From assembly GCA_040757575.1 (NCBI GenBank), contig JBFLXA010000012.1:4707-68706 (forward strand): DNA of 64,000 bases. Direction: 5' to 3'. This DNA is from Pseudomonadota bacterium. GTDB taxonomy: Bacteria; Pseudomonadota; Gammaproteobacteria; Burkholderiales; Thiobacillaceae. The notes beneath the pieces are model-generated. The model did no database searches. It saw nothing but the letters and a program-made list of their open reading frames with translations, and was not told the DNA's origin. The number at the start of each line of letters is the position of its first letter. Positions within the stretch are counted from its first letter, which is position 1. Below are positions 40,506 to 59,558 of this stretch, one piece after another. A program made the translations under genes and the position numbers.

Positions 40506-40510
40506 TGCAA

Positions 40511-40540: not shown

Positions 40541-40599
40541 GAAACCGATCAACCTTTTGCCGGTATCCACAGATGGGTGGTGCCGGTAAGGAGATGAAC

Positions 40600-42168: not shown

Positions 42169-42171
42169 GGC

Positions 42172-42253: not shown

Positions 42254-42263
42254 GGAGTTAAAA

Positions 42264-42488: not shown

Positions 42489-42495
42489 TTGTTAT

Positions 42496-42576
42496 GGGGA
42501 AACGGGAAATGGGAAAAGTGAAACGCAAGAGCAAATGCGCTCCCCACGTTTCCCGTTTCTCGTTTCTCGTTTCCCG
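42496..42576. repeat. family B hairpin built from 7-nt units (GGGAAAC type)
   Basis: GGGGAAACGGGAAATGGGAAAAGTGAAACG ... CGTTTCCCGTTTCTCGTTTCTCGTTTCCCG. Confidence 0.8.
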
Positions 42577-42595
42577 AATCTGAAAGGAATTCATC

Positions 42596-42796
42596 ATGGC
42601 ACTGAAGATTGTTGCCGACCTGTGTACTGCCTGTGGGGATTGCGAACCGGAATGCCCCACCGAGTCCATCAAGGCCAAGAAGGGTGTTTATGTCATCGAC
42701 GCGGAGACCTGCACGGAATGCGAAGGGGATTTCAAGAAGCCCCAGTGCGTGAAGATCTGTCCCGTGGACGACTGCATCATCCCCCTGGCCGCTTGA
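42596..42796 (+). CDS. small 2x[4Fe-4S]-type ferredoxin
   Basis: [12 protein letters not shown] and CTECEGD...CVKICP cluster motifs; 66 aa; nif operon context. Confidence 0.85.
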
Positions 42797-42798
42797 AG

Positions 42799-42879
42799 GT
42801 GGGAATGAGTGATGGGGGGTGGGGGATGAGAATCCCCTGACGCATTGATCCCATTTCCCATTACTCATTCCCCATCACC
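42799..42879. repeat. family B hairpin built from 7-nt units
   Basis: GGTGGGAATGAGTGATGGGGGGTGGGGGATGAGAATCCCC ... GATCCCATTTCCCATTACTCATTCCCCATCACC. The nifY RBS GGAG follows directly. Confidence 0.8.
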
Positions 42880-42890
42880 GGAGTCATGAA

Positions 42891-43592
42891 ATGACGACAA
42901 TCACCAAAGGCGCTGCCCTGCGCATGGCCCTGGCGGCGAAAACGCTGGAAGGGGTGGATGCCCGGGCCTTTACCATCAAGCTGGCCGAGCACCTGGGTTT
43001 GCCGATCACCGAAGAGAAACTGGCCGCCTTCACCGTGGCGGACCTGAAGGCCCTGCTCACCGGCGAGGAAAGCATCGAGCCGGACGTGGACATGGCCAGC
43101 ATCAAGCTGGCGGTGCGCTACCTGTGGGGCGAAAACGGTGACGATGCCTCCATTCCCAAACCCGAGGCTTACACGGAAGGCGATATCCCCGACAGCCTGC
43201 GAGTGGCCGTAGCCTCCAACACGGCCGACAACCTGGACGGGCATTTCGGCTCCGCCCCCCGTTTCCTGGTCTACCAGGTAGGCAAGAGCGCCATCCGGCT
43301 GGTGGACGTGCGCCCCACCCTCATCGCCGACGAGGCCGAAGACAAGAACGTAGCCCGTTCCGAACTGATCAACGATTGCCAGATGGTCTATGTCCAGTCC
43401 ATCGGTGGTCCGGCGGCCGCCAAGGTGGTGCGCGCCGGCCTGCATCCGGTGAAGGTGCCTACCCCGGCCCCGGCCGTGGAAGTGCTGGCCCGCCTGCAAG
43501 CCGTGCTGGACGCCCCCCCGCCCTGGCTGGCCAAGATCATGGGCGTGGAAGCCCGGAGCCTGGCCCGGTTTGCCGAGGAGGAAGAAACATGA
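42891..43592 (+). CDS. nifY: NifY/NafY-family FeMo-cofactor binding protein (NifX-like C-terminal domain)
   Basis: C-terminal dinitrogenase FeMo-co biosynthesis domain (RVAVASNTADNLDGHFGSAPRFLVYQV, VYVQSIGGPAAAKV). nifHDKT-Y gene order. Confidence 0.75.
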   Translation: MTTITKGAALRMALAAKTLEGVDARAFTIKLAEHLGLPITEEKLAAFTVADLKALLTGEESIEPDVDMASIKLAVRYLWGENGDDASIPKPEAYTEGDIPDSLRVAVASNTADNLDGHFGSAPRFLVYQVGKSAIRLVDVRPTLIADEAEDKNVARSELINDCQMVYVQSIGGPAAAKVVRAGLHPVKVPTPAPAVEVLARLQAVLDAPPPWLAKIMGVEARSLARFAEEEET

Positions 43593-43861
43593 TCACCCCG
43601 GAAACCCTGGCCCTGGTGACTGCCAGGGCCGGCGAAGTGGGTCTGACCGAAAACGGCCTGGCCCATCTGCGCCAGGCCTGGCCGGACATCCATTTCACCT
43701 TCTGTTCTGAAGACGATGTGCCGGCCCGATTGAGCCCGGCCGCCACGGCTGAAGGATTCGCCGTTTATCTCGTCAGCGGCGCCCAGCATTGCGTGGGCTT
43801 CACCAACCATCTGGAAGCGGCCACCGGCCTGGTGCTGGCGGCGATCTCTGACGAAGACTGA
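43589..43861 (+). CDS. nif-cluster hypothetical protein (90 aa)
   Basis: The start overlaps the nifY stop (ATGA). The true ATG lies internal to track ORF 43376..43861. Family not recognised. Confidence 0.55.
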   Translation: MITPETLALVTARAGEVGLTENGLAHLRQAWPDIHFTFCSEDDVPARLSPAATAEGFAVYLVSGAQHCVGFTNHLEAATGLVLAAISDED

Positions 43862-43878
43862 CCCCGGAGTGAATTGAT

Positions 43879-45533
<1,655 letters not shown>

Positions 45534-45540
45534 GTGATCC

Positions 45541-46224
45541 ATGGACCTGGGATTTACCGACGCTGACTGGGGCGCCATCTGGCTGACCCTGAAACTGGCC
45601 ACCGTCACCACGGGCCTGCTGCTGCTCATCGGCACCCCCATCGCCTGGCGCCTGGCCCGTACCCGGGCCTGGTGGAAGGGGCCGGTAGCGGCGGTGGTGG
45701 CCCTGCCCCTGGTGTTGCCGCCCACGGTGCTGGGGTTCTACCTGCTGGTGGCCCTGGGGCCCAACGGGCCGGTGGGAAGCCTTACCCAGTCCCTGGGCCT
45801 GGGGGTGCTGCCCTTCACCTTCTGGGGCCTGGTGGTGGCCTCGGTGTTCTACTCCATGCCCTTCGTGGTGCAGCCCCTGCAGAACGCCTTCGAGGCCATC
45901 GGTGATCGCCCCCTGGAAGTGGCCGCCACCCTGCGGGCGGGCCTCTGGGATACCTTCTTCACGGTGATCCTGCCCCTGGCCCGGCCGGGCTTTCTCACCG
46001 CCGCCATCCTGGGCTTTGCCCATACCGTGGGGGAATTCGGCGTGGTGCTCATGATCGGCGGCAACATCCCGGACGAGACCCGGGTGGTGTCGGTGCAGAT
46101 CTACGACCACGTGGAGGCCATGGACTACGCCGCCGCCCACGGCCTGGCCCTGGGCATGGTGGTGTTCTCCTTCCTGGTGTTGTGGGCCCTGTACCACTTC
46201 AACCCCACACGGCCACGCAAATGA
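45541..46224 (+). CDS. modB: molybdate ABC transporter permease ModB
   Basis: Five to six TM segments and the EAA-like loop [26 protein letters not shown]. Confidence 0.9.
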
Positions 46225-47312
46225 CCGGGCCCGCCATGAACAACAGCATCCACGCCCGATTCAAGCTCCCTTTTCCCGGCTTCACCCTGGATGTGGACCT
46301 GGACCTGCCCGGCCGGGGGGTGACCGCCCTGTTCGGCCATTCCGGTTCCGGCAAGACCACCCTGCTGCGCTGTATTGCCGGTCTGGAGCGGGTGCCGGGC
46401 GGCACCCTCAAGGTGGGTGACGGGGTCTGGCAGGACGGCACGGCCTTCCTGCCGGTTCATCAGCGGCCCATCGGCTATGTGTTCCAGGAAGCCAGCCTCT
46501 TTCCCCACCTCACGGTGCGTCGCAACCTGGAATACGGGCTCAAGCGGGTGCCCTCCGGCGAGCGCCGGGTCTCCCTGGACCAGGCGGTGGCCTTGCTGGG
46601 CATCGGCGCCTTGCTGGATCGCCTGCCGGAACGCCTGTCCGGGGGTGAGAAGCAGCGGGTGGCCATTGCCCGGGCCCTGGCGGTGAGCCCCCGCCTCCTG
46701 CTCATGGACGAACCCCTGGCGGCCCTGGACCTGGCCCGCAAGCAGGAGATCCTGCCCTACCTGGAACGGCTCCACGACGAACTGGAAATCCCCCTGCTGT
46801 ATGTCAGCCATGCCCCGGATGAGGTGGCCCGCATTGCCGACCACATCGTCGTCATGGACGCCGGCCGGGCGGTGGCCTCCGGCCCCCTGACTGAAACCCT
46901 GGCCCGTCTGGACCTGCCCATCCGCCTCGGGGAAGATGCCGGGGTGGTGCTGGATGCCACCGTGGCGGAGCGGGATGCGGAATGGGGCCTGGTGCGGGTG
47001 GCCTTTGACGGCGGCGCCCTGTGGGCCCGGGATGGGGGCCATGCCCTGGGCCAGCGGGTGCGGGTGCGCATCCTGGCCCGGGACGTGAGCCTGGCCTCAA
47101 CCCGTCATGACGGCACCAGCATTCTCAACATCCTGCCGGGGGTGGTGGAAGCCATGGTGGAGGACGGCCACCCGGCCCTGGTGCTGGCGCGCCTGAACGT
47201 GGGGGGGGCGCCGATCCTGGCCCGCCTCACCCGCCGTTCCGCCCAGAACCTGGGGCTCTCGCCGGGCCGGCTGGTGTATGCACAGATTAAGGCCGTGGCA
47301 CTGGTGGGGTGA
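46221..47312 (+). CDS. modC: molybdate ABC transporter ATPase ModC with C-terminal Mop/TOBE domain
   Basis: Walker [10 protein letters not shown], signature [10 protein letters not shown]-terminal TOBE domain. ATGA overlap with modB. Confidence 0.9.
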
Positions 47313-47409: not shown

Positions 47410-47859
47410 ATAAGTATTGAGTTTGCCCGGGGGGCGGACCTGGAGGCCATGGCAGGCCTGCTGGCCGAACTGTTCACCCTGGAAAGCGATTTCCTGCCCG
47501 ACCGCGAAAAACAGCGGTCAGGCCTGAAGCTCATCCTGGACAACCCGGCCCTGGGGCGGTTGTTCGTGGTCAGGGCGGGGGAGCGGGTGGTGGGCATGGC
47601 CAACGCCCTGATCACGGTCAGCACCGCCGAGGGGGCGCGGGTGTTATTGCTGGAGGACGTGGTCCTGCATCGGGACCATCGCGGCGGCGGCCTGGGACGC
47701 CGGCTGGTGGAACACGTGCTGGCCTGGGCAGCAGCGGAGGGCATGGGACGTGTGACCCTGCTGGCGGACAAGGACAATGCCCCGGCCCTGGGCTTCTACC
47801 GGAAACTGGGCTTTGCAAATTCCAATATGACGGTCCTGCGGCGGCAACTGCCGGGCTAG
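47398..47859 (+). CDS. GNAT-family N-acetyltransferase
   Basis: Acetyl-CoA motif HRDHRGGGLGRRLVEHVLAWA and GFYRKLGF. The start is uncertain because several in-frame ATGs lie inside the heptamer array. The stop overlaps the convergent gene's stop (CTAG). Confidence 0.7.
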   Translation: MGNGISIEFARGADLEAMAGLLAELFTLESDFLPDREKQRSGLKLILDNPALGRLFVVRAGERVVGMANALITVSTAEGARVLLLEDVVLHRDHRGGGLGRRLVEHVLAWAAAEGMGRVTLLADKDNAPALGFYRKLGFANSNMTVLRRQLPG

Positions 47860-49073
47860 CCCGGGCCGGCCGGGTGCCAGCCCACCAGGGCCAGCATGAT
47901 GAAGAAGCCCACCCCATAGCCCAGGGGCACATGCCAGCCGTTCCTCAGCCAGCCCCCCACGGATCTGGCCTCGGGGAACAGATTGGACAAGGCGACCCCG
48001 GCGGAAGAGCCGAACCAGATCATGGAACCGCCAAAACCCACGGCAAAGGCCAGCACACCCCAGTCGTAGCCCCCCTGGGCCAGGGCCAGGGCGGTGAGGG
48101 GGATGTTGTCGAACACGGCGGAGACGAAGCCCAGGCCGAAGGCCGTCTCCCAGGAAGCGGCCGGCAGCTTTTCCACCGGCATCATGGAAGCGCACATCAC
48201 CAGGGAAAGCAGGAAGATACTGCCCTTGGCCGCATCCGGCAGCAGGCTCCACTCCGGTTTGCGCAGCAGCGCACCTACCAGAATGGCCACCCACACGGCG
48301 GCGCCCAGGAAGGGGAAGCTGTCCGCGTACTGGGGGAACAGGGAGTTGACCGTGACGTTGGTGGCTACGGCGGCTACAAGGATCCAGGCGACGATGGCCA
48401 ACCGGGCCCAGTCCACATGGGCGTGGCTGGAGGCATCCTTCTGGATGGGCTGGTAGGCCTGCTGCTGTCGGGCGGCGATGAGACCAAAGACCAGCAGCGC
48501 GGGCACGGCGGCGGTGTAGGCGGAGATCACCTCCATGGGCGGAATGCCGTCGATCCACATCATGGTGGTGGTGGTGTCCCCCACCACGGAGCCGGCGCCG
48601 CCGGCATTGGATGCGGCGACGATGGCCGCCAGGTAGCCGATGTGCACCCGGCGGCGGAACACACCGGCGGCCACGGTGCCGCCGATGAGGGCGGCGGCGA
48701 TGTTGTCCAGGAAGGCGGACATGACGAACACCAGCACCAGCAGCACGAAGGCGCCTTTCCAGTCGTCCGGCAGATAGCGGGGCAGGACATGGGGCAGGTG
48801 GCTGTCCTCGAAATGCCGGGCCAGCAGGGCAAAGCCCAGCAACAGGCCCAGCAGGTTGGTGAGCACCACCCATTCGTGTTCCAGATGTACGATCCAGCCC
48901 GTGAACCCGGGGCCTTCCTGGAAACCGGTGAAGCCGATCTTGTACAGGGAGATCACCGCCAGGCCGGTAAGGGCTACTTGCAGGGTGCGGTGGTGGAACA
49001 GTGCTACCCCAAGCAGGGTGGCGGCGAACAGGATGAAGTCGACGGGGATGCCGAACAGGCTGGGTGAAACCAT
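47856..49073 (-). CDS. ArsB/NhaD-superfamily ion transporter (NhaD/citrate-transporter-like)
   Basis: About 11-12 TM helices, FLDNIAAALIGG and FDNIPLTALAL motifs. Confidence 0.7.
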   Translation of the reverse strand: MVSPSLFGIPVDFILFAATLLGVALFHHRTLQVALTGLAVISLYKIGFTGFQEGPGFTGWIVHLEHEWVVLTNLLGLLLGFALLARHFEDSHLPHVLPRYLPDDWKGAFVLLVLVFVMSAFLDNIAAALIGGTVAAGVFRRRVHIGYLAAIVAASNAGGAGSVVGDTTTTMMWIDGIPPMEVISAYTAAVPALLVFGLIAARQQQAYQPIQKDASSHAHVDWARLAIVAWILVAAVATNVTVNSLFPQYADSFPFLGAAVWVAILVGALLRKPEWSLLPDAAKGSIFLLSLVMCASMMPVEKLPAASWETAFGLGFVSAVFDNIPLTALALAQGGYDWGVLAFAVGFGGSMIWFGSSAGVALSNLFPEARSVGGWLRNGWHVPLGYGVGFFIMLALVGWHPAGPG

Positions 49074-49081: not shown

Positions 49082-49510
49082 TTACTTCACCAACGTGACG
49101 GGAATTTCAGAGAGATGCAGCACTTTCATTGCTACGGACCCCAGCAACAACCCCCCCAGGGCGGTGCGGCCGTGGCTGCCCATGATGATCTGGTCGCAGC
49201 CCAGGTCCTTGGCAAGGGCGGTGATACCGGGTGCCACCTCTCCCTGGATGATGTGTTCCGTGACGCATAAGCCGGCTTCATGAAGCACGGTGCGGGCTGG
49301 TGAGAGGGAGGCTTCCCCCCAGTCCCGTTCCAGGGTTGCCAGTTCCTCCGGCTTCAGCAGGCGGCGCACCATCCAGTCGTCCCCCGGGGCCTGGACGTTG
49401 ACCAGGTGGATATCCAGACCGGGCACCGAAGCGGCGATGCCGGCCACGTGGCGGGCAGCCCGCACGGACCCCTCTGAACCATCAACAGGTAGCAGGATTT
49501 TGCAGGGCAT
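49082..49510 (-). CDS. universal stress protein (UspA family)
   Basis: ILLPVDGS N-terminus and C-terminal GSHGRTALGGLLLGSVAMKV ATP-binding motif. Confidence 0.85.
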   Translation of the reverse strand: MPCKILLPVDGSEGSVRAARHVAGIAASVPGLDIHLVNVQAPGDDWMVRRLLKPEELATLERDWGEASLSPARTVLHEAGLCVTEHIIQGEVAPGITALAKDLGCDQIIMGSHGRTALGGLLLGSVAMKVLHLSEIPVTLVK

Positions 49511-49534: not shown

Positions 49535-50035
49535 CTAGACGCCGCCGCTATGGACGGTTTCGTAATATATCTTTTCCAGTTCCAGCTTGTGTTTGGTTTC
49601 CTCGCTGGCCAGGTACTGGAACAGTTCCTGGATGGGGCCGGCCGGGGTGGTCCGGGCGAGTTCGCCATAGTGGCTCATGGCCGCGTGCTCCCGCCCCATG
49701 GCATAGCGCAGCACCGTCTGGTCGTCCGGGTTGTCGCCCAGGTCCGGCAGGTGCAGGCAGTCGGAGAACTTGCTGTCGCTGGCCGGGCGCTGGATTTCCG
49801 CCTTCACCTGGTCGGCGATGTCCGTGCGTCGGGCCAGGGCGCCGAACAGGTCGTAGTGCCGCTGCTCCTCCTCGGCCAGCTCCTCCACCAGATAGCGGAT
49901 GCGCTTGCTGACCTTGGGAATCAGGGCCGTGTAGAAATCCCGGGCGGTTTCCTCGAAATGGGTGGCGACCTCGAGGATCTCCTTCAGGCTGGTCTTGCCG
50001 CGCAGGCGTTCGATGCCATGGCTACCTTCTGTCAT
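49535..50035 (-). CDS. rubrerythrin/ferritin-like di-iron protein
   Basis: Two ExxH motifs (EEEQRH, SEETKH) in a four-helix-type sequence. The start overlaps the upstream stop (ATGA). The ATG lies internal to track ORF 49535..50203. Confidence 0.75.
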   Translation of the reverse strand: MTEGSHGIERLRGKTSLKEILEVATHFEETARDFYTALIPKVSKRIRYLVEELAEEEQRHYDLFGALARRTDIADQVKAEIQRPASDSKFSDCLHLPDLGDNPDDQTVLRYAMGREHAAMSHYGELARTTPAGPIQELFQYLASEETKHKLELEKIYYETVHSGGV

Positions 50036-51831
50036 GCGTTTGCCTCCTGTGGAACCAATACCGCGTGGATGCTGGCAGCGATGCGATGGCCGTCCGCCAC
50101 CGCGTGCACCACATCCGGCCCGGCCACGCAGTCTCCGCCTGCCCAGAGCCAGGGCTCGGAGGTGCGGCCGTCGGCGTCGATCCGGATGCGGCCCCGGTTC
50201 CATTCCAGTCGTTCAGTCAGGGCGTCCCCCAGCAAGGACGTGTCGGCGAACTGGCCAATGGCCTCGATCACCGTGTCGCAGGCATGGATGGTTTCGTCGC
50301 CATCGTCATAGCGGGGGGCAAAGCGCCTGTTCTCGTCGAAGATGGACAACACCTTCCAGGTCTTCAGCCCCACCAGTTTTCCCTGGGGGTCGATTACGCA
50401 GCCCTGGGGGCCGCAACGGTCCCGGATGACCACGCCTTCCTCCAGGGCCTCCTTGATCTCGTCCGGGTCCGCCAGGAAGTGTTCCTGGTCTTCCAGGGCG
50501 GTCACCACCACGTCCACCTGGCCGTACTGCACCTTCTGCATGCGGGCCAGGGAGCGGGCGATGTCCATGGCCACGTTGCCACCGCCGATGACCACGGCGC
50601 AGTGGGGCAGCTCGAAGTCTTCGTTGGCGGTGATCCGGTGCAGCAGGTCCACGGCCCGGTAGACCTTCTCGTGCTCCGAGTTGGGGATGCGGGTCTGGCG
50701 GCCCTGTTGCAGGCCGATGGCCAGGACCACGGCGTCGTGGTCCTGGCGAAGCTGGTCCAGGGATACATCCACGCCGATGCGGCAGTTGTAGCGGATATCC
50801 ACCCCCATGGAAACGATGACCGCCACGTCCTGGTCCAGGGCGCTGTAGGGCAGGCGGTATTCCGGGATGCCGTAGCGGGTCATGCCGCCAGCGTGGGCGC
50901 TGGCCTCGAACACGGTGACGGCGTGGCCCAGGCGGGCCAGGTCGAAGGCGGCGGTGAGGCCCGCCGGGCCGGCGCCGATGATGGCCACCCGCTTGCCCGT
51001 GGCCGGGGCGGGGCCGCCGATGAGGTCCGGGATTCGGTCGAAGGGCACCTGGTCCACGATGTGCCGCTTCAGCCAGCGGATGGCGATGGGGTCCCCCTCG
51101 TGGCGGGCGGCACAGGCGTCCTCGCACTTGTGGGTGCAGACCCGGCCGCACACCTGGGAGAAGGGGTTGGTCTCGTAGAGCAGCTTCAGGCCCCGCTCAT
51201 AGTCGCCGTCGCGAATCGCGGCGATGTACTGGGGCACCGCCATGTGGGTGGGGCAGGTGGCCACGCACAGGCCACAGGCCACGCAACGGTCCGCCTCCAG
51301 GGCCGCCTGCTCCCGGGTGTAGCCGTGCACGATCTCCTTGAAGTTGTCGATGCGGTCCTGTGGATGCATCTCGCCCATGGGGATGCGGTACTGGCCCGTG
51401 AGGCGATGGTCTTCCGGGCGGCGGTAGCCCAGGGGCAGGGTGTTCCACTCCAGCTTGTCCACCCCGGGGGTGAAGCGGAAGGCGTCCGGGTCGCTTTCCA
51501 CCCACTGGTAGGCGTTGGACATGGTGAGGGACTGGGTCATGCACACGTCCACGCACAGGGCGCACCAGCAGCAACGGCCGTAGTCGATGCGGGGCCGCAG
51601 GCCCGAGTCGCCGGACTTGGTCTCGATGCCCGCCACCGGCAGCATGTCGATGGCCCCGTTCTGGCAGATGGTCTCGCAGGTGCCGCAGCCGATGCACTTG
51701 GCGATGTCGTTCTGGTGGAAGCCCCGGTAGCGGGGGGCCGCCTGGCGGTTCAGGGGGTCTTCAATGCTGACCGGGTCCCGGAACAGGTGCTTCCAGGCGG
51801 TGAAGGGGGAGAGGAGGTCCTTGACGCTCAT
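50032..51831 (-). CDS. fusion protein: NuoI/HycF/MbxN-like 2x[4Fe-4S] subunit + GltD-type NAD(P)H-dependent FAD oxidoreductase
   Basis: N-terminus has CIGCGTCETIC and CCWCALCVDVC (NuoI-like). Then the GltD N-domain (RCVACGLCVATCP, NPFSQVCGRVCTHKCEDAC), FAD fold RVAIIGAGPAGLTAA and a second Rossmann fold VVIGGGNVAMDIA. The true ATG at 51831 lies internal to the 912-aa track ORF. Confidence 0.85.
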   Translation of the reverse strand: MSVKDLLSPFTAWKHLFRDPVSIEDPLNRQAAPRYRGFHQNDIAKCIGCGTCETICQNGAIDMLPVAGIETKSGDSGLRPRIDYGRCCWCALCVDVCMTQSLTMSNAYQWVESDPDAFRFTPGVDKLEWNTLPLGYRRPEDHRLTGQYRIPMGEMHPQDRIDNFKEIVHGYTREQAALEADRCVACGLCVATCPTHMAVPQYIAAIRDGDYERGLKLLYETNPFSQVCGRVCTHKCEDACAARHEGDPIAIRWLKRHIVDQVPFDRIPDLIGGPAPATGKRVAIIGAGPAGLTAAFDLARLGHAVTVFEASAHAGGMTRYGIPEYRLPYSALDQDVAVIVSMGVDIRYNCRIGVDVSLDQLRQDHDAVVLAIGLQQGRQTRIPNSEHEKVYRAVDLLHRITANEDFELPHCAVVIGGGNVAMDIARSLARMQKVQYGQVDVVVTALEDQEHFLADPDEIKEALEEGVVIRDRCGPQGCVIDPQGKLVGLKTWKVLSIFDENRRFAPRYDDGDETIHACDTVIEAIGQFADTSLLGDALTERLEWNRGRIRIDADGRTSEPWLWAGGDCVAGPDVVHAVADGHRIAASIHAVLVPQEANA

Positions 51832-51833
51832 GG

Positions 51834-53009
51834 CTATCTCTCTATCTCCGGCGGATAGGTATGCAGGGACACCATCAGCGCAGCCACATCCGAGATGTTG
51901 AGCCCCACGATCATGCGTTCCAGCAGGGCCATGGCGTGGGTGTAGGAGGGCCCCCGCACGTTGACCCGTCTGGGGTAACCTGAGCCGTCCGTCACCAGGT
52001 AGTAGCCGTACTCCCCCCGGGAGCATTCGCCCCGCACGTAGGTCTCGCCCCGGGGGATCTTCCAGTGCAGCATGCTGGGCATGGGGGCCATGACCGGGCC
52101 GTCCTTGGGCATCCTGCTCAAAATCTGGCGGATCAGGTCCACGGACACCAGGATGTCCCGGCGGCGCACGTCGGCCCGGGTGTAGATGTCCGAGTCCTGG
52201 CCGATGACGGGTTCCCAGTCCAGTTGGTCGTAGACCAGGTAGGGGGCGTCCCGGCGCACGTCCTTCGCCACCCCTGCGGCCCGGGCGTTGGGGCCGGTGA
52301 TGCCGTACTGGTCCAGCCAGGCGGGGTCGATGACCCCCAGGCCCACGGTGCGCCGTTTGAACACGGCGTTGCAGAACATCACGTCCCACACGTCCTTGAG
52401 GGTGCGCTCCACCTCCAGCAGGGTTTCCTCCATGCGGCCGGCGAAGCCGTCGGGCAACTGGTCCCGCACGCCGCCGGGCATGATGAACATGTGGTAGATG
52501 CGGGCGCCGGTCATCTCCTCGAAGCGGTCCAGCATCAGGTCCCGGGCATAGGTGGTCCACTGGCCGATGACCCCCTGGCCGATGGCGCCGGCCTGGCCGC
52601 CCAGGTACATGAGATAGCTGTTGATGCGGCCCATCTCCAGGATCAGGGCGCGGATCCAGTTCGCCTTCTCGGGGACTTCCACCCCGGCCAGTTCCTCCAC
52701 GGCGGCGGCATAGCAGTATTCGTTGAAGTCCGGTTCCGGCACGCAGATGCGGCAGACGATGGGAAAGCACTGGATGAAGGTGCGCCGCTCCATGAGCTTT
52801 TCGAAGCCCCGGTGCAGGTAGCCCACATGGGTCTTGCCCTCCACCACCTCGTCGCCGCAGACGGTGAGTTCCACCGACATGTTGCCGGTGATGCCCGGGT
52901 GGTTGGGGCCCTGCCAGAGCTTCAGGTATTTGCCCGAGGTGAGGTCGATGTCCAGGCTGCCGTCAGGCTTCATCGCCGGGTACTGGGAGCGGTCGGGGGT
53001 GTAGGTCAT
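51834..53009 (-). CDS. NuoD/HycE/MbxL-like large subunit lacking most NiFe-ligand cysteines
   Basis: GPNHPGITG, GYLHRGFEKL and other NuoD/group-4 blocks. The N-terminal site reads CRICVPE instead of RxCGxC. The C-terminus reads YPPEIER instead of DPCxxC. Confidence 0.85.
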   Translation of the reverse strand: MTYTPDRSQYPAMKPDGSLDIDLTSGKYLKLWQGPNHPGITGNMSVELTVCGDEVVEGKTHVGYLHRGFEKLMERRTFIQCFPIVCRICVPEPDFNEYCYAAAVEELAGVEVPEKANWIRALILEMGRINSYLMYLGGQAGAIGQGVIGQWTTYARDLMLDRFEEMTGARIYHMFIMPGGVRDQLPDGFAGRMEETLLEVERTLKDVWDVMFCNAVFKRRTVGLGVIDPAWLDQYGITGPNARAAGVAKDVRRDAPYLVYDQLDWEPVIGQDSDIYTRADVRRRDILVSVDLIRQILSRMPKDGPVMAPMPSMLHWKIPRGETYVRGECSRGEYGYYLVTDGSGYPRRVNVRGPSYTHAMALLERMIVGLNISDVAALMVSLHTYPPEIER

Positions 53010-53030
53010 GGGCGGCGCTCCGCGCAACGC

Positions 53031-53150
53031 TTCCCCTCCCCCCCGGGGGGAGGGGCCAGGGGAGAGGGAGAGTCGGTGGCATGGTGTGAGGACTGTCGTG
53101 GCGCAACCGTCTTGCCCTCTCCCCAGCCCTCCCCCAGAGGGGGAGGGAGC
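53031..53150. repeat. REP-like element, family A (two units) inside the operon
   Basis: CCCCTCCCCCCCGGGGGGAGGGGCCAGGGGAGAGGG and CCCTCTCCCCAGCCCTCCCCCAGAGGGGGAGGGAG between the NuoC-like and NuoD-like genes. Confidence 0.8.
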
Positions 53151-53183
53151 GTGGTGCCGCGTCTGGTGATGGCTGGGTTCATG

Positions 53184-53726
53184 TCACGCTTTCCCGGGAT
53201 AGAGCTGCTGCTTCATGTAGGTCTCCGGGTCCCGGGTCTCCCGGCCGGGCCGCTGGGCGTAGCTTTCCCGGGCGTACTTCAGGGTGTCGAAGTCGCGGCG
53301 GTAGGGGGGAATGTCGTTCCAGCCCTCCAGGATGAATTCCTCCTCCACCCGGGGGCTGCCTGGGAAGGCGATGCCGAACATCTCCCGCAGTTCCCGCTGG
53401 TAGGTGGCGGCCGTGGGCCACAGGTCGTGGATGCTCTCCATGGTGGTGTCGACCCGGGGCAGCAGCACCCGCAGGCCGATGTCCTGGTTCGCCGTGCGAT
53501 TGTTCAGCAGGTAGGTCAACTGGAACTGGCCGTCTTCAAGCCAGTCCACCGCCGTCAGCAGCACCAGATGTGTAAACCCCTCCAGGTCCCGCAGGTGCAG
53601 CAAGGCCTGGCGCAGGTATTCCGCCGGCAGGGTGACGAAGACCAGATTGGCGCGCTTCTCGGTCATCTCGCCGAGCGGGAAAAGAGCCTTCAGGCGGTCG
53701 TGGAGGTCATGCATGCCGTTATTCAC
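53184..53726 (-). CDS. NuoC/MbxK-like subunit
   Basis: NuoC 30-kDa-type blocks (LLTAVDW, WPTAATYQRELREMFGIAF). Confidence 0.85.
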   Translation of the reverse strand: MNNGMHDLHDRLKALFPLGEMTEKRANLVFVTLPAEYLRQALLHLRDLEGFTHLVLLTAVDWLEDGQFQLTYLLNNRTANQDIGLRVLLPRVDTTMESIHDLWPTAATYQRELREMFGIAFPGSPRVEEEFILEGWNDIPPYRRDFDTLKYARESYAQRPGRETRDPETYMKQQLYPGKA

Positions 53727-53736
53727 GTCGTCCTCG

Positions 53737-54402
53737 TCACCAGTTGTAATCCGGCATGTCCCAGTCGTGGATCACCTGCTTCTGGTTGGCCTTGTACCAG
53801 GCGAACTTCTCCGCGTACTGGTTGGCGCCTTCCGCCTTGCCGGCCCGGATCAGCTTCTTCAGGTCTTCGAAGCCCAGCAGCAGGGCCTCGGGGCGGGGCA
53901 TGCAGCCGGTGATGTAGAGGTCCACGGGCATGTACTGGTCCAGGCACTTGATGGTGTTGTAGGAATCCCAGTACATGCCGCCGTTGATGGTGCAGGAGCC
54001 CAGGCCCACCACGTACTTGGGGTTCTGCATCTGCTCGTAGGCGCGGATGGCCCGCTTCAGGGTCTTGGTGGACAGGTAGCCGGAGATGACCAATAAATTT
54101 GCCTGGCGGGCCGTGGGCCGCCACTGGATGCCGTAGCGGTAGGCGTCGAAGCGGGGGGTCATGAGGGGGCGCATCTCGATGGCGCCGCAGCCTGTACCGA
54201 AGCCCAATATCCACAGGGAATTGGCCCGGGCCCAGTTGAAGAAGTCCTCGACGATCTTCAGGTAGGCGCCGTGCTGCACCGTGGGGGGCGCGTCGCAGAA
54301 GTAGTCCTTGAGGGGCTCCACTTCGAATTCCACCCCGTCCGGCCCCTTCACCTTGCGGGGCATCAGCTCGGGTTTGATGAAATGCATCGGGTCGCGCTTC
54401 AT
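53737..54402 (-). CDS. NuoB/MbxJ-like small subunit with ~55-aa N-terminal extension
   Basis: GFGTGCGAIEM, GLGSCTINGG and ITGCMPRPE correspond to NuoB cluster-N2 motifs. Only one Cys is present where NuoB has CC. Confidence 0.85.
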   Translation of the reverse strand: MKRDPMHFIKPELMPRKVKGPDGVEFEVEPLKDYFCDAPPTVQHGAYLKIVEDFFNWARANSLWILGFGTGCGAIEMRPLMTPRFDAYRYGIQWRPTARQANLLVISGYLSTKTLKRAIRAYEQMQNPKYVVGLGSCTINGGMYWDSYNTIKCLDQYMPVDLYITGCMPRPEALLLGFEDLKKLIRAGKAEGANQYAEKFAWYKANQKQVIHDWDMPDYNW

Positions 54403-54412
54403 TTTCTCGTCC

Positions 54413-55318
54413 TCACACCAAGACTATGGCCAATACGCCCAGGGGCAGGCCCCAGATCATGAACCAGCGGATGGACTGCTCCACCCGGAAGCGGGGAAAC
54501 ACCACACCCACGAACACCGACACCATGTAGATGCAGAACACCTTCAGGAAGAACACCGGCCAGCTGGCCGCGCCGCCGAAGAACAGGTTCATGTAGATGA
54601 CGATCTTGGCAATCGGGAAGATGGCCCGGTTGGTCTGCATCAGGGCCAGGTAGGAGGAGTGGTACTCCGTGGGGGGGCCGATGGGGATTTCCTGGGGGGC
54701 GAGCACCACGTCGAAGGGGGGACGCATCATGGACCCCAGGAAGCCGATCATGGCCGCCGCCACTGCCACCGGGTTGGTGAACAGGGTCCAGTTTTCCACG
54801 CCTCCCTGCTGGGCGGCGACGATGTCCGTCACCGACAGGGTCTGGTATTGCAGGGCCACGGCGAACACTGCCAGGGCGAAGGGCAGTTCCGCCATGCTTA
54901 CTTGCGACAGGCCCCGGGTGATGCCGATGGCAGAATGGGGATGGCCGGATTCCGCCGCCCCCAGGGCCATGCCCAGGGTGCCGAAGAAGACGAAGTACAG
55001 GGCCAGGATCAGGTCGCCGGCAAAGGACAGGTTGGAGAACATTTCCGAGCCGTAGATCGTCGGCACGAACAGCAGCAGCCCCACGCCGCCGGTAAGGCGG
55101 AACACCGGTCCCAGGTAGAACATGGCGCCGTGGGTGATGGAGGTGCGCAGGCCGTAGTTCTTGATCAGGTCCGCGTAGTTCTGCCAGATGGGAATGCCGT
55201 GGCGCCGCCCCACCCGGGCGCCGATCTTCTGGATGAAGGCCCCCAGCAGCATGCCGTAGTTCACCACGATGAACAGGGTCAGCAGGGCGTAGGGAATCTG
55301 GATCCACTGGAATTCCAT
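54413..55318 (-). CDS. NuoH/HycD/MbxM-like membrane subunit
   Basis: About 8 TM helices and the conserved loop RPPFDVVLAPQEIPIGPPTEY. Confidence 0.8.
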   Translation of the reverse strand: MEFQWIQIPYALLTLFIVVNYGMLLGAFIQKIGARVGRRHGIPIWQNYADLIKNYGLRTSITHGAMFYLGPVFRLTGGVGLLLFVPTIYGSEMFSNLSFAGDLILALYFVFFGTLGMALGAAESGHPHSAIGITRGLSQVSMAELPFALAVFAVALQYQTLSVTDIVAAQQGGVENWTLFTNPVAVAAAMIGFLGSMMRPPFDVVLAPQEIPIGPPTEYHSSYLALMQTNRAIFPIAKIVIYMNLFFGGAASWPVFFLKVFCIYMVSVFVGVVFPRFRVEQSIRWFMIWGLPLGVLAIVLV

Positions 55319-55321
55319 GGT

Positions 55322-58300
55322 TTAGAACCCCACGAAGAAAACGATGACCACGAAGGCCAGGAAATGGAAGGCGTAGTGCTGGCCGTTGCCGTCGTAAAGA
55401 CGCCGGCCCAGGTCGCCGGCGGTGTGCAGCAGGTCGGTGACGGTGCCCCAGAAGCGGGTGACGAAGGGCTGGGTGAGAAAGCCCATGGCCTTGCGGTAAG
55501 GGGCGTAGAAGTTCCAGGCGAAGTGGGTGGTCTCGGGCCGGTAGGGACGCTCGGCGGAGAAGACGATGTTGAACTGCTTCACCATCTGGGCGCGGCGGTT
55601 CACGAACAGCAGCCAGGCGAACAGGGTGGCGAAGATGACGCCGACGATGATCATGATGGCTACCGGGTTCCAGTAGCCATACTGGCTGGTGATGAGCCCG
55701 CCCTCCCATTGCAGGGCGCCGGTGGGGAAGAAGGTGCTGATGTAGGCGTCCACCTGGCGCAGGGCCAGGCCGGGCACCACGGCGAACACCAGCAGCATCA
55801 CCACGAACAGCATTTGCGGCACCACGATCCAGAAGGGGGCTTCCTTCACCCGGCGAAGTTCGTCCTTCAACTGGCCCAGAAAGATGGTGTGGATGAGGCG
55901 GAACAGGTACAGGAAGGCGATGGGCCCGGCCATGAACAGGATCACCATGGGCAGGCGGCTGTCGTGGTCCATGATGGCGTTGTAGAAGATCCAGCGGCCG
56001 CCAAAGCCGGACAGGGGCGGCACCCCGGACATGGCGATGATGCCGATCAATACGGCGATGAAGGACAGGGGCATGAGCTTGATGAGGCCCCCCATGCGGT
56101 ACATCTCCCGGGTGCCGGTACGCTTGGCCACGCCGCCCACCGCCAGGAAGAGCATGGACTTGTAGATGAAATGGTTGATGACGAACAGCAGGGCCATGAG
56201 CCAGCCCAGGTGGTTCATCAACGCCAGACCGAACAGGGCATAGCCCATCTGGCCGATGGAGGAATAGGCCAGGAGGCGTTTCGCGTCCTCCTGGAAGATG
56301 GCGAGCAGGTTGCCCAGGAGGGCGGTCAAGGCCCCCACCCAGAGCAGGGCATGGGTCAGGTCCACGCCATACAGGGTCTGGGGGCCCAGGGTCATGAGCA
56401 GCACGAACAGGCCGAACAGCCCGGCCTTCAGCAGGATGCCGGACACCAGGGGCGATACGTCGGTCTCCGCCTCGGCGTGGGCGCCGGGCAGCCAGATGTG
56501 CAGGCCGATGGCGGCGGTCTTGGTCATGAATCCCAGGGCGAGGAGCAGGAACACCCAGGGGGCGATGGGCTCCACCAGGTCCACCAGGTCCACCAGATAC
56601 AGGTTGGGCACCCCGGCACCGGCCGCCGCCAGGGCAAACCCCGCCAGGATGAGGAAGGCCCCGCCCAGGGAGAACACCATGTAGGACAGGGCGTGGGGTT
56701 CGGATTCCTTGCCCCGCAGGATGAGGAAGTAGGACCCCAGGGTGAGCAGTTCCCAGGCGGCGAAGAAATGGAAGGCGTCCTGGGCCTGCACCAGCATCAC
56801 CAGGCCGGCGAACATGAGCAGGGTGGCGGGGTAGAAGCCGATGCGCCGGCCGTGGGCGTGGTAGCTGGCCAGCAGGGTGATGGCCCCGCCCAGGGTGAAG
56901 ATCAGGGCGAAGATCAGCCGCAGGGGGTCGTAGTCGTCCCAGGTCAGCAAGAAGAAGCCCACCAGGCCGCCAATGGCCAGGGTGTTCTTCACCCAGGCGG
57001 GCAGCCAGTCCAGCAGCAGGAAACCCAGGGCAAAGAGCAGGGGCAGGGCCAGCAGCAGGTTGCTCCGGCCGAACAGGCCGGCCGACAGGTCGCCCCACAG
57101 CCAGGCCAGGGCCCAGGCCGCGGCCAGGGCAGCGAGGACGGGGAGGGCCTTGTGGGCCGGGCAGGTCGGCGATGTTGCCGGGGCCTCCCGCTTCAGGGCA
57201 TAGCCGAACCAGCGGAACAGGTAGCCCGCCTCGATGAGGGCCCCCAGCAGCACCAGGGCCAGGAGGGCCAGGCGGCCTTCCCGGGCCAGCACCTGGGCCA
57301 GTTCCCACTTGGCGTAGAAGCCGGGGAAGGGGGGCAGGCCGGCCAGCAGGGCAATGAAACAGGCGAAGGCGAACAGGAGCAGGGGACGCTTGGCCAGGGC
57401 GGCCCAGTCCGTGAGCTGCCGGCCCGCCACCAGGCCGGATAGCCAGAACAGGCCGGCCTTGGCCACGGCGTGGGAGACCAGGATGCCGAAGGCGATGAAG
57501 GGGGTGGCTTCCCCCAGGATGTCCCGCTGGCCCAGCACCGCCAGCACCAGGCCGGTCTGGGCGATGGAGGAATAACCCAGCAGGCGCCGGTCATTCTTCT
57601 GGGGCAGGGCCAGGATGTTGGCCGCCACGAAGGTGGTGATGCCGATGCCCGTGGCCAGGGGCAGCCAGGCGCTGCCGCCCACCAGCAGCAGCTTGTCCAC
57701 GGCGTACAGGGCGGCGGCACCGGTGGCGGCAGAGAACAGGGCCGAGAAGCCGGGATGGGCGGATTCGTAGATATCCAGGGCCCAGCCGTTGGCGGGGAAG
57801 GGCTTCAACTCCGCCACCAGGGCCAGGAAGATGAAGAAGAAGGCCAGGCTGCCCCCCTGGGTCAGGCCCAGGTTGGCCGCGGCCATGCCGTCGATGTTGA
57901 GGGTGCCGGTGGCGTGGTAGGCGAAGATGATGCCCACCAGCAGCAGCACGGAAATGAACTGGGACACCAGCAGATACTTGAAGCCGGCCCCCAGGGCCCG
58001 CTCGTCCCGGGACAACAGCACCAGGCCGGCGGTGGAGATGACCGCCAGCTCGAAGAACACGAACAGGTTGAACAGGTCCCGGGTGAGGAGGATGCCGCCC
58101 AGGGCCATGACCGCCACCAGCAGCACCGCCATGGCCCGGCGACCCTGGCCCAGAAGGGCGTCCTTCAGGTGCAGGGCGGTGAACAGGCCGGTCAGGTTCA
58201 CCAGCAGGGCCAGGGCGGCTTCCTCCAGGCCGAACCGCAGGTTGATGGCGAAGGGGGGCGGCGTGCCGGCGGTGAAGATCTCCTGGGGCGGGGCGCCTTC

Positions 58301-58477
58301 CTGGACGAAGGCCCACAGCCAGCGGGCGGGAATCCAGACCATCCAGGCCAGGACCCCCAGGGTCAGGCCGTAGGCCGTGCGGGCACGGTCTCCCAGCAGC
58401 CCCAGCAGGAAAGCCCCGCCCAGTCCCAGGGCCAGGAGGAGGATGGGATGCAGGAACAGGCTGTCCACGGCCGTCAT
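55322..58477 (-). CDS. fused double antiporter-like subunit (two MrpD/NuoM/N-type modules, MbxH-MbxH' equivalent)
   Basis: 1051 aa, about 28 TM helices, with two successive proton-conducting-transporter cores. The start overlaps the MrpC-like stop (ATGA). Confidence 0.85.
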   Translation of the reverse strand: MTAVDSLFLHPILLLALGLGGAFLLGLLGDRARTAYGLTLGVLAWMVWIPARWLWAFVQEGAPPQEIFTAGTPPPFAINLRFGLEEAALALLVNLTGLFTALHLKDALLGQGRRAMAVLLVAVMALGGILLTRDLFNLFVFFELAVISTAGLVLLSRDERALGAGFKYLLVSQFISVLLLVGIIFAYHATGTLNIDGMAAANLGLTQGGSLAFFFIFLALVAELKPFPANGWALDIYESAHPGFSALFSAATGAAALYAVDKLLLVGGSAWLPLATGIGITTFVAANILALPQKNDRRLLGYSSIAQTGLVLAVLGQRDILGEATPFIAFGILVSHAVAKAGLFWLSGLVAGRQLTDWAALAKRPLLLFAFACFIALLAGLPPFPGFYAKWELAQVLAREGRLALLALVLLGALIEAGYLFRWFGYALKREAPATSPTCPAHKALPVLAALAAAWALAWLWGDLSAGLFGRSNLLLALPLLFALGFLLLDWLPAWVKNTLAIGGLVGFFLLTWDDYDPLRLIFALIFTLGGAITLLASYHAHGRRIGFYPATLLMFAGLVMLVQAQDAFHFFAAWELLTLGSYFLILRGKESEPHALSYMVFSLGGAFLILAGFALAAAGAGVPNLYLVDLVDLVEPIAPWVFLLLALGFMTKTAAIGLHIWLPGAHAEAETDVSPLVSGILLKAGLFGLFVLLMTLGPQTLYGVDLTHALLWVGALTALLGNLLAIFQEDAKRLLAYSSIGQMGYALFGLALMNHLGWLMALLFVINHFIYKSMLFLAVGGVAKRTGTREMYRMGGLIKLMPLSFIAVLIGIIAMSGVPPLSGFGGRWIFYNAIMDHDSRLPMVILFMAGPIAFLYLFRLIHTIFLGQLKDELRRVKEAPFWIVVPQMLFVVMLLVFAVVPGLALRQVDAYISTFFPTGALQWEGGLITSQYGYWNPVAIMIIVGVIFATLFAWLLFVNRRAQMVKQFNIVFSAERPYRPETTHFAWNFYAPYRKAMGFLTQPFVTRFWGTVTDLLHTAGDLGRRLYDGNGQHYAFHFLAFVVIVFFVGF

Positions 58478-58839
58478 CCCTTCAGCTCCGTGAACTGGCG
58501 GATGTCCAGGCTGCGTTTCCGGTCATGGAGCCGCAGGGCGTAGGCCAGCATGAGGGCCGTCACCCCCACGCCGATGACGATGGCGGTGAGCACCAGGGCC
58601 TGGGGCAGGGGGTCGATGATGCGGGCCACGGCCTGGGCGGCCGGCACCGTGGCATCCAGGATGGGGGCGGTGCGTCCGCCCATGTAGCCGATGGCGACGA
58701 TGACGGTGTTCACCCCCGTGCCCGCCAGGGTGAAGGCCACGATCATGCGCAGCAGGTTACGGTGGGTGAGGGCGCCGTAGAAGCCGATGAGGATCAGCAG
58801 GAAGCCGGTGGCCAGGGCCATCTGGGCGATGTCGGGCAT
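58474..58839 (-). CDS. MrpC/MnhC/NuoK-like subunit
   Basis: Three TM helices, LTHRNLLRMIVAF and ALVLTAIVIG blocks. Confidence 0.85.
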   Translation of the reverse strand: MPDIAQMALATGFLLILIGFYGALTHRNLLRMIVAFTLAGTGVNTVIVAIGYMGGRTAPILDATVPAAQAVARIIDPLPQALVLTAIVIGVGVTALMLAYALRLHDRKRSLDIRQFTELKG

Positions 58840-59558
58840 CAGGGCGCCTCCCCGTCATGGGCTCGGGACTTCTCCTCCGCCAGACCCGCCAGCAGGGAAG
58901 ACAGTTCCGCCCCCACCTTCAGGCCGATGAGGGAATAGATGAGGGGGATGGCCCCGGCGGAGAACAGGGCCCCCAAGGTGCCGGTGGGCAGGATGCGGTT
59001 GTCCAGGAAGCCCCCGGCCAGCACCAGGCCCAGCAGGCCGATGAGCACGTAGAACGTGCCGGACAGGGCTTCGATGGCGCCGATGAGCCGATGGCTGAAG
59101 GTCTTGAAGGGATCGGCCAGCAGCATCAGCAAGGCCCCGGAAGCGATGATGGCGCCGCCCTGGAAGCCGCCGCCCGGTGTCAGGTGGCCGTTGACGAAGA
59201 CATAGACCCCCAACAGCAGGATCAGGGGGGCCAGGTAGCGGCTGCCGGTGGCCAGCAGTTCCCCCACGGGGGGCCGGGGGGCGCCGGATTTCTCCGCCTG
59301 CCCCCCCAGGGCCAGCACCAGGCCCACCACGGCGGCGGCCAGGAACAGCACCGTCACTTCCCCCAGGGTATCCAGGCCCCGGTAGGTGACGATGATGGCG
59401 GTGACGATGTTGGCGGCCCCCAGGTCCGGGGCGGTGCGCTCGGCGTAGTAGCGGGCGGTCTGGTTCAGCTCCGGGTCCGGGCTGTAGCCCGCCAGCAGGG
59501 CAGAGAACAGGCCTCCCAGGGCGAGCACCAGGGCCAGGGCGATGAAGCGCTTAACCAT
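58839..59558 (-). CDS. MrpB/MnhB-domain subunit (MbhE/F-like)
   Basis: NIVTAIIVTYRGLDTLGEVTVL and GGFQGG blocks typical of the MnhB domain. Confidence 0.8.
   Translation of the reverse strand: MVKRFIALALVLALGGLFSALLAGYSPDPELNQTARYYAERTAPDLGAANIVTAIIVTYRGLDTLGEVTVLFLAAAVVGLVLALGGQAEKSGAPRPPVGELLATGSRYLAPLILLLGVYVFVNGHLTPGGGFQGGAIIASGALLMLLADPFKTFSHRLIGAIEALSGTFYVLIGLLGLVLAGGFLDNRILPTGTLGALFSAGAIPLIYSLIGLKVGAELSSLLAGLAEEKSRAHDGEAP

Follow-up and report, generated by a model that had tools for sequence, protein, structure and literature searches.

A MbsN/NuoI-like domain fused to an NfnB/SudA/GltD-like flavoprotein module in an Mrp-linked, MBS-type operon of a Thiobacillaceae bacterium

A 64,000-nucleotide stretch of DNA from a Thiobacillaceae bacterium (contig JBFLXA010000012.1; the whole stretch is called the window below) encodes a protein of 599 amino acids (aa) in which a ferredoxin-like domain of the NuoI/MbsN type is joined to a flavoprotein module. 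The locus raises two questions, namely whether the two modules truly form one polypeptide, and which reaction a membrane complex equipped with such a subunit would carry out. The gene is part of a 13-gene operon whose products resemble the sulfane-sulfur reductase MBS of Pyrococcus furiosus. Domain architecture, conserved ligands, operon and MBS-type signatures are established. The fusion is probably the subunit through which electrons of pyridine nucleotides enter or leave an ion-translocating, Mrp-linked oxidoreductase of the MBS/Mbx type, a reading held with somewhat better than even confidence; cofactor preference, substrate, ion coupling and direction are inferred.

The fusion gene comprises 599 codons and a stop, and its translation is not interrupted by internal stops. 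An earlier note, made from the sequence of the window, had reported a single open reading frame (ORF) featuring ferredoxin-type, Cys-rich and dinucleotide-binding motifs, and all of them were found. The ferredoxin domain features the motifs CIGCGTCETIC (C46-C56) and CCWCALCVDVC (C87-C97), and the ligands of its two [4Fe-4S] sites are C46, C49, C52, C56 and C87, C90, C93, C97. Two further sites (C183, C186, C189, C193 and C228, C232, C236, C240) are marked by the Cys motifs RCVACGLCVATCP (residues 182-194) and CGRVCTHKCEDAC (residues 228-240), which align with the corresponding motifs of NfnB. The dinucleotide folds are tagged by IIGAGPAGLTAA (residues 284-295) and VIGGGNVAMDIA (residues 414-425). 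All 16 cluster cysteines are invariant in 24 homologs, at identities down to 34%, and in the family alignment of 24 sequences the cores GAGPAG (286-291) and GGGNVA (416-421) are invariant or nearly so.

Profile searches sort the protein in the same way. Pfam matches are Fer4_7 at residues 45-100 (E 5.6e-12), Fer4_20 (PF14691) at 160-261 (E 4e-29), and Pyr_redox_2 at 281-577 (E 1.8e-28). The NCBIfam model NF010590 (PRK13984, "putative oxidoreductase", 611 positions) aligns to residues 2-593 over profile positions 7-607 (E 5.8e-256). The domain reading of the note, a NuoI-type domain followed by a Cys-rich domain and by folds for flavin adenine dinucleotide (FAD) and nicotinamide adenine dinucleotide (phosphate), NAD(P), is correct by both resources. 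The score against NF010590 (850.5 bits) is lower than the curated cut-off of 946 bits, though the alignment runs end to end, and the protein is therefore assigned to a divergent proteobacterial branch. The best PDB match of the N-terminal domain is MbsN (6u8y_N, E 2.7e-21), followed by NuoI/NdhI chains; the NuoI model TIGR01971 scores 80.4 bits, under its cut-off of 113. The ORF as called mechanically extends upstream in frame to a GTG at 52770, and the extension overlaps the nuoD-like gene. Homologs begin where the ATG at 51831 sits, and this start is found 2 nt past the nuoD-like stop.

A frameshift or missed stop codon between the two halves had been named in the note as a finding that would dissolve the fusion. 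It was looked for and refuted. Of the 120 best database homologs, 119 are fused proteins of full length (about 600 aa) with both halves. One continuous protein is likewise encoded at 41 independent loci and in the genomes of isolates (Thermosipho melanesiensis, Magnetovirga frankeli, Endothiovibrio diazotrophicus, Parasulfuritortus cantonensis), and the linker aligns across homologs without a break of frame. Two genes merged by an assembly or sequencing artefact were rejected as an explanation; no supporting evidence was found for it, and its probability is next to nil.

The family is large. At E <= 1e-10 the protein search returned 7989 matches among 8000 candidates scored, and the best 120 of these share 71-92% identity with the window protein. 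After clustering at 50%, full-length fusions account for about a dozen representatives, the lowest identity being 35%; they originate from Thermosipho, WOR-3, Hydrothermae and Spirochaetaceae. The relatives nearest to the window protein (91% identity) reside in metagenome-assembled genomes of Thiobacillaceae, and by this measure, too, the window would probably stem from that family. A genome scan identified 42 loci, spanning Beta-, Gamma- and Alphaproteobacteria, Spirochaetota and Mcinerneyibacteriota, and in 41 of them the genes present on the contig follow the same order, mrpE-F-G-mbhD-B-C-H/H'-M-J-K-L-fusion-rbr. The order is kept also in T. melanesiensis, inclusive of the rubrerythrin-like gene at the end. 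The complex is widespread, and occurs in sulfur-oxidising symbionts (Thiodiazotropha), Thiobacillus, Gallionellaceae, purple sulfur bacteria, marine Rhodobacteraceae, Thermotogae and WOR-3.

The view that the fusion had not been described does not hold. It is a common architecture with a conserved context, as the search of domain architecture, spread and neighbourhood proposed in the note revealed; the curated model NF010590 covers the fused protein end to end, and thousands of homologs are deposited. Degli Esposti 2016 (PMC4758237) reported mbx-like operons in Thermotoga and proteobacteria which encode a flavoprotein related to gltD and end with rubrerythrin; the flavoprotein was cast as a substitution of NuoI, and the older ferredoxin:NADP+ function was assumed. 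Those operons are like the present one in having a gltD-related flavoprotein at the NuoI position and rubrerythrin at the end. The published account departs from the present one in two points, the assumed function and the NuoI domain, which in the window is kept within the fusion, not substituted. SudA-linked ("dehydrogenase-linked") MBX operons are known from the genome papers on the Desulfurococcaceae Staphylothermus and Thermosphaera (Spring 2010, PMC3035292; Anderson 2009, PMC2678158). In these, too, the genes of an Mbh/Mbx-type membrane complex are joined by one for a SudA/GltD-like NAD(P)H module, and a role as NADPH dehydrogenase was proposed for it. By the published description, however, the SudA homolog is a separate gene, and the Q-module subunits are more similar to those of hydrogenases or formate hydrogenlyases. 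The 2021 review of complex-I-like enzymes (PMC8165549) mentions neither GltD nor Thermotoga. The window protein is a member of a slightly derived proteobacterial subtype of a known, biochemically uncharacterised complex.

The operon (49535-60971, minus strand) is tightly packed, and the fusion gene is the twelfth of its 13 genes. Homologs of Mrp E, F, G, B(D/E) and C, two antiporter-like subunits, and the M, J, K, L and N subunits are all encoded in it. The proposal that a pyridine-nucleotide module is wired to the peripheral arm, where it would do the work of NuoEFG, fits both the position of the gene, next to the nuoD/mbsL-like gene of a complete Mrp-Mbx/MBS-type operon, and the best match of the N-terminal domain to MbsN. 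The last gene encodes a rubrerythrin-like protein devoid of a rubredoxin domain. Its ATG overlaps the stop codon of the fusion gene (ATGA junction), denoting translational coupling. A gene of this kind follows the fusion gene in 34 loci as in Thermosipho (locus L043, 11853-12356), and is the last of the operon from Thermotogae to Betaproteobacteria. The rubrerythrin-like protein could be a subunit, a guard against peroxide or oxygen, or a redox partner. A 209-aa ORF at 60253-60882, with a Trp/Pro/Cys-rich translation, is spurious and off-frame; the real genes in this region are mrpE and mrpF. Scans for promoters and terminators at either end of the operon yielded no matches, and were uninformative.

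All six subunits queried in PDB searches (H/H', M, J, L and N) match the MBS of P. furiosus (6U8Y) best. For the L subunit the match to 6u8y_L (E 3.4e-90) exceeds those to Thermus Nqo4 (1.2e-63) and MbhL (1.5e-37). E values are 1.9e-60 for J (6u8y_J) and 3.9e-37 for M (6u8y_M), and in the long antiporter-like ORF 6u8y_H aligns at aa 13-266 (E 9.2e-42) and H' (6u8y_X) at aa 476-1046 (E 9.2e-56). H and H' are separate proteins in Thermosipho (450 and 614 aa; L043, 3743-6940). In most loci of the window's type the H/H' match is one continuous stretch, suggesting that the H/H' fusion is shared.

The chemistry of MBS has been tied to the absence of the quinone-binding residues His38 and Tyr87 of Nqo4, and to a proximal [4Fe-4S] cluster held by three Cys, not four (PMC7684303; PMC8165549). 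In the structure paper these features are linked to polysulfide reduction catalysed by the cluster (PMC7684303). In the NuoD/MbsL-like subunit of the window His38 is replaced by Thr and Tyr87 by Val, and the motif RICVPEPD is kept. The NuoB/MbsJ-like subunit has GTGCG where complex I has Cys-Cys, and this single-Cys motif is conserved in 36 of the 36 loci in which it can be read. The ligands of a quinone-reducing complex I or NDH-1, i.e. the Cys-Cys pair of cluster N2 and His38/Tyr87, are hence missing. The same is true for the ligands of Group 4 membrane-bound [NiFe] hydrogenases (Mbh/Ech), four Cys of an N-terminal RxCGxC and a C-terminal DPCxxC motif: the NuoD/MbsL-like subunit retains one vestigial Cys (RICV), has no C-terminal Cys, and terminates with SLHTYPPEIER, devoid of a CxxC-type NiFe motif. 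By its residues the complex is MBS-like, and neither hydrogenase-like nor akin to a quinone-reducing complex I.

The loci can be sorted into two types. Type B (Thiodiazotropha, Sedimenticolaceae, Parasulfuritortus, Mcinerneyibacteria, Thermosipho) retains counterparts of both MbsJ Cys25 and MbsL Cys385. In type A, to which the window belongs, both are lost, and H and H' are fused. Type A includes loci from Thiobacillaceae, Gallionellaceae, Thiothrix, Thiocapsa, Rhodobacteraceae and other Alphaproteobacteria, and Salinispira. The J subunits of type A are extended at the N-terminus by about 48 residues, among which Cys36 is conserved (DY[FY]Cxxxx). The extension is present in every locus lacking the Cys25 equivalent, and is absent wherever Cys25 is kept. 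This pattern looks like covariation and suggests a replacement, Cys36 being possibly a fourth cluster ligand; in the NuoB-like subunit of the window only C72, C137 and C167 occupy canonical positions around the proximal cluster. Cys153 of the same subunit was rejected as a fourth ligand, being limited to the closest Thiobacillaceae.

Compared with P. furiosus MBS, the window operon shares the Mrp-derived subunit set, the gene order, RICVPEPD, and the single-Cys TGCG in the J-like subunit. It differs for the additional rubrerythrin-like gene, the fused H/H', the loss of the Cys25 and Cys385 equivalents, and the gain of the Cys-bearing extension in J. A further difference resides in the N subunit. 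MbsN of P. furiosus is a stand-alone protein of 208 aa which accepts electrons from ferredoxin, whereas the MbsN-like domain of the window carries an NfnB-like FAD/NAD(P) module of about 450 aa; the donor would therefore be a pyridine nucleotide, unlike in MBS.

The C-terminal module had been called GltD-type. The family was rightly recognised, the exact branch was not: PDB bit scores are 220-270 for modules of the Nfn/Stn type, and about 150 for true small subunits of glutamate synthase. The module aligns to residues 5-460 of the 468 of Thermotoga maritima NfnB, and also to NfnI and Xfn of P. furiosus. An AlphaFold2 model of the fusion, built on a 21-sequence alignment, has a mean pLDDT (predicted local distance difference test) of 86.5 and a predicted template modelling (TM) score of 0.83, confidence being lower at residues 1-40 and in the linker (110-150). 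Foldseek ranks the large subunit of NfnI (5jca_L; target-normalised TM 0.87, rmsd 2.6 A) as top match, and the predicted fold matches NfnB (4ylf_B) as well, target-normalised TM values ranging from 0.87 to 0.88. None of the Foldseek matches is a solved structure spanning both halves of the fusion. Because of the higher Nfn/Stn scores and of the Foldseek ranking, NfnB/SudA-type is the more exact label, and by alignment and predicted fold the module is a complete NfnB-type unit. Residues 149-593, approximately, share with NfnB and NfnI large subunits (4YLF_B, 5JCA_L) the two [4Fe-4S] motifs and the FAD and NAD(P) folds. Unlike NfnB and NfnI, the module is fused to a subunit of a membrane complex, in an operon without a partner of the NfnA type.

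A further difference concerns the NAD(P) fold. The five best PDB matches, all NADPH-using modules, feature Tyr-Arg-Arg after the second strand of this fold. At this place the window protein reads Thr-Ala-Leu-Glu after an inserted LQKxxYG segment, and 119 of the 120 closest homologs carry a motif of the x-L-E type. In Rossmann folds an acidic residue at this position favours NAD, basic residues favour NADP. The donor of the fusion protein is probably NADH, since Ala-Leu-Glu stands where NADPH-type modules have Tyr-Arg-Arg. Tyr-Arg-Arg is kept, and the insert is missing, in a minority branch (Salinispira locus L037 and proteins P0123, P0127, P0129 and P0141, Spirochaetes and Hydrothermae among them; alignment around residues 432-452). 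The two branches of the family suggest NADH- and NADPH-specific versions of the same complex. The loss of Tyr-Arg-Arg bears on cofactor preference, and leaves membership in the NfnB/SudA/GltD fold untouched.

The likeness to the N-module of complex I (NuoE, NuoF, NuoG) is a functional analogy only, in that a flavin and an Fe-S chain feed electrons of NADH to NuoI and NuoB. The folds are unrelated, and no homology of the fusion to the N-module was detected in Pfam, NCBIfam and PDB searches. NuoF binds flavin mononucleotide, the window's module with two dinucleotide folds FAD; the N-module is made by three subunits, its counterpart in the window by one fused polypeptide.

The following path can be drawn. 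NAD(P)H, most likely NADH, would deliver a hydride to the FAD of the NfnB/GltD-like module, and electrons would move singly through the two [4Fe-4S] clusters of this module and the two of the MbsN/NuoI-like domain. Their next station would be the proximal cluster of the MbsJ/NuoB-like subunit, at the chamber which this subunit builds together with its MbsL- and MbsM-like partners. A substrate other than a quinone would take up the electrons in this J/L/M chamber; judging from Pyrococcus MBS, it is most likely sulfane sulfur in the form of polysulfide or persulfide. The redox reaction would be coupled to movement of H+ or Na+ through the Mrp-like membrane arm. The standard potential of NAD+/NADH is -320 mV, that for the reduction of polysulfide or S0 to sulfide about -260 to -270 mV. 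As the two couples are nearly isopotential, the reaction is expected to reverse readily, and the ion gradient together with the NADH/NAD+ ratio would decide which way it runs in vivo.

Several points weigh against this assignment. The NADH preference derives from a sequence rule of thumb, and the substrate is assigned by homology to a single archaeal enzyme. The Cys385 equivalent is lost in the window's subtype, and Cys36, if a fourth ligand, could weaken the analogy with an open iron site. No biochemical or structural study of any fused member was found in the searchable literature, the coverage of which is incomplete. The most serious point is energetic. The yield of MBS is quoted as 42 kJ per 2 e- (PMC8165549), and with NADH instead of ferredoxin about 160 mV, or roughly 31 of the 42 kJ, would be lost. 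Forward reduction of polysulfide could hardly drive two pump modules and an antiporter module, and the low yield argues for reverse operation or for an acceptor of higher potential. It is the main weakness of the sulfur assignment, and the basis of two other readings, one with a quinone as acceptor, the other with electrons flowing in reverse.

With a quinone as acceptor, the enzyme would be a non-canonical NAD(P)H:quinone oxidoreductase. Electrons would follow the same path, ubiquinone or menaquinone would be reduced in the chamber, and the fused flavoprotein would be a compact replacement of NuoEFG. Judged by redox potentials, the energy released from NADH to quinone would suffice for the full set of pumps, that from NADH to polysulfide would not; moreover, most proteobacterial carriers are respiratory organisms endowed with quinones, and the chamber of MBS, which is hydrophobic, matches that of complex I in width (PMC7684303). 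The residues lining the site speak differently: Thr and Val replace His38 and Tyr87, the Cys-Cys motif is absent in all 36 readable loci, and every subunit searched is nearer to MBS than to any complex I or NDH-1. The same operon resides also in strictly fermentative Thermotogae, which are generally regarded as devoid of respiratory quinones. A quinone substrate is accordingly regarded as rather unlikely. In the original Mbx model, endorsed by Degli Esposti 2016 (PMC4758237) and by several genome papers, ferredoxin feeds the Fe-S chain, the GltD-like module is the output at which NAD(P)+ is reduced, and ions are translocated. NfnB-type modules do link ferredoxin and NADP(H), as the PDB matches testify. 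Yet later work identified Mbx as the sulfane-sulfur reductase MBS (PMC7684303), and electrons handed by ferredoxin to the FAD would bypass the J/L/M chamber where coupling takes place, so that no known coupling mechanism would apply. The strict conservation of the MbsJ/MbsL active-site signatures would also be unexpected for an idle site. A ferredoxin:NAD(P)+ oxidoreductase is deemed unlikely.

Still less probable is flavin-based bifurcation as in Nfn, in which the NfnB-like FAD would split the electron pair of NAD(P)H. One electron would enter the Fe-S chain at low potential, and a partner of high potential would receive the second; the co-transcribed rubrerythrin-like protein might be this partner, standing in for NfnA. 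The closest structures (NfnI, NfnABC, StnABC) are bifurcating enzymes. In genomes from Thermosipho to Betaproteobacteria the rubrerythrin-like gene accompanies the fusion, and in the window the two are coupled in translation; the P. furiosus mbs, with MbsN unfused, is described as having 13 subunits (A-N). No NfnA-like [2Fe-2S]/FAD partner is found, however, among the operon genes, GltD and DPD feature the same fold without bifurcating, and the binding of the di-iron protein to the flavoprotein is a candidate interaction only.

In sulfur- and iron-oxidising autotrophs, this Thiobacillaceae bacterium included, the complex might run backwards, the H+ or Na+ gradient pushing electrons of sulfide or polysulfide (about -270 mV) onto NAD+ (-320 mV); this is a speculative proposal, of rather low probability. 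The reverse mode, if real, would be a short and cheap reverse electron transport to NADH for CO2 fixation (here also N2 fixation), bypassing the quinone pool and complex I. In the forward mode the enzyme could serve as an NADH:stored-sulfur reductase of dark, anoxic metabolism. With couples so near in potential, it could reversibly connect the pools of sulfur and of pyridine nucleotides with each other and with the membrane potential, which bears on the NADH supply of chemolithoautotrophs and on the anoxic survival of sulfur-storing bacteria. Expression data from relatives count in favour of the MBS-type assignment. In the Riftia symbiont Endoriftia a putative Mrp-Mbx, for which the direction is unknown, is co-expressed with genes of the reductive tricarboxylic acid cycle and of hydrogenase (PMC11636981). 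T. maritima mbxA is induced 4.4-fold by S0, and the authors took ferredoxin as the donor (PMC9431562). Metabolic models of Thermotoga and of symbionts assuming ferredoxin as Mbx donor would need correcting. The features of the window are listed in Table 1.

Table 1. Coordinates of the fusion gene, its domains, the other operon genes and flanking features in the window
Feature	Coordinates	Strand	Basis
Fusion gene, 599 aa: MbsN/NuoI-like domain and NfnB/SudA/GltD-like flavoprotein module	50032-51831	-	uninterrupted ORF; Pfam, NCBIfam; full-length homologs
NuoI/MbsN-type domain, residues 1-115, two [4Fe-4S] sites	51487-51831	-	Fer4_7; MbsN best PDB match; eight invariant Cys
Linker between the two modules, residues 116-150	51382-51486	-	alignable across homologs, no stop or frame break; pLDDT about 61-76
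Fer4_20 helical domain, residues 160-261, two further [4Fe-4S] sites	51049-51354	-	PF14691; invariant Cys; aligns to N-terminal domain of NfnB (4ylf_B)
FAD fold (GAGPAG) and NAD(P) fold (GGGNVAMD), residues 281-577	50101-50991	-	Pyr_redox_2; PDB and family alignments
MrpE-like, first operon gene	60471-60971	-	Pfam MNHE, E 4.1e-38
MrpF-like, 86 aa	60218-60478	-	ORF list; tblastn conservation in loci
MrpG-like	59874-60221	-	NCBIfam
MbhD/DUF4040-like	59551-59874	-	NCBIfam; Pfam MbhD in Thermosipho counterpart
MrpB/MbhE-like	58839-59558	-	NCBIfam
MrpC-like	58474-58839	-	NCBIfam
Fused MbsH-MbsH' antiporter-like subunits, one 1051-aa ORF	55322-58477	-	6u8y_H and 6u8y_X matches; NCBIfam
NuoH/MbsM-like membrane anchor	54413-55318	-	6u8y_M
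NuoB/MbsJ-like, predicted to carry the proximal [4Fe-4S] cluster	53737-54402	-	6u8y_J
NuoC/MbsK-like	53184-53726	-	NCBIfam NuoC models
NuoD/MbsL-like	51834-53027	-	6u8y_L
Rubrerythrin-like di-iron four-helix protein, 166 aa, last operon gene	49535-50035	-	Pfam Rubrerythrin, E 2.9e-12
Universal stress protein	49082-49510	-	
CitMHS/ArsB-superfamily permease	47856-49073	-	
C_GCAxxG_C_C putative redox-active protein	61294-61791	-	
TolC/OEP-type outer-membrane protein	62336-63826	-	
Nitrogenase/molybdate cluster	37887-47312	+	
nifH	37887-38873	+	
nifD	39030-40505	+	
nifK	40573-42168	+	
NafY/NifX-like	42891-43592	+	
modE	43879-44739	+	
modABC	44553-47312	+	
Defence-type island	23389-35903	+	

The genes flanking the operon vary among loci: when 206 flank ORFs of 25 loci were compared all against all, nothing was common across clades beyond the 13-gene unit. 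Downstream of the rubrerythrin-like gene, on the same strand and with successive gaps of 24 and 8 nt, reside genes for a universal stress protein and a permease, which may be co-transcribed with the operon in the window. They were rejected as members of the system, as they are not found at this position even in relatives with a 91%-identical fusion protein. In the two closest Thiobacillaceae genomes (L002, 16731-19389; L009, 13004-15641) the operon is followed by genes for an SQR-like flavoprotein, a truncated-globin-like protein and a rhodanese-like protein. The names were read off the sequences, and provide a weak hint of a sulfur context, in the closest relatives only. Just upstream of mrpE the window encodes a putative redox-active protein, no counterpart of which was found beside the operon in other loci, and a TolC/OEP-type protein.

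A nitrogenase/molybdate cluster is found 7 kb from the operon, and the organism is likely a diazotroph. A functional tie of the operon to nitrogen fixation was rejected. The adjacency is taken to be incidental, because nif or mod genes were found within 10 kb of the operon in none of the 42 related loci, a weak ModC-like match (36%) in locus L019 being the only hit.

Farther away, a defence-type island stands out for its base composition, the G+C content falling to 0.52 from about 0.64 elsewhere. No ORF passed the codon-bias filter between 28069 and 30452. The island encodes a SNF2-family helicase, an AIPR abortive-infection protein, an N6/N4 DNA methylase, a RhuM-family protein and the helicase subunit of a type III restriction system.

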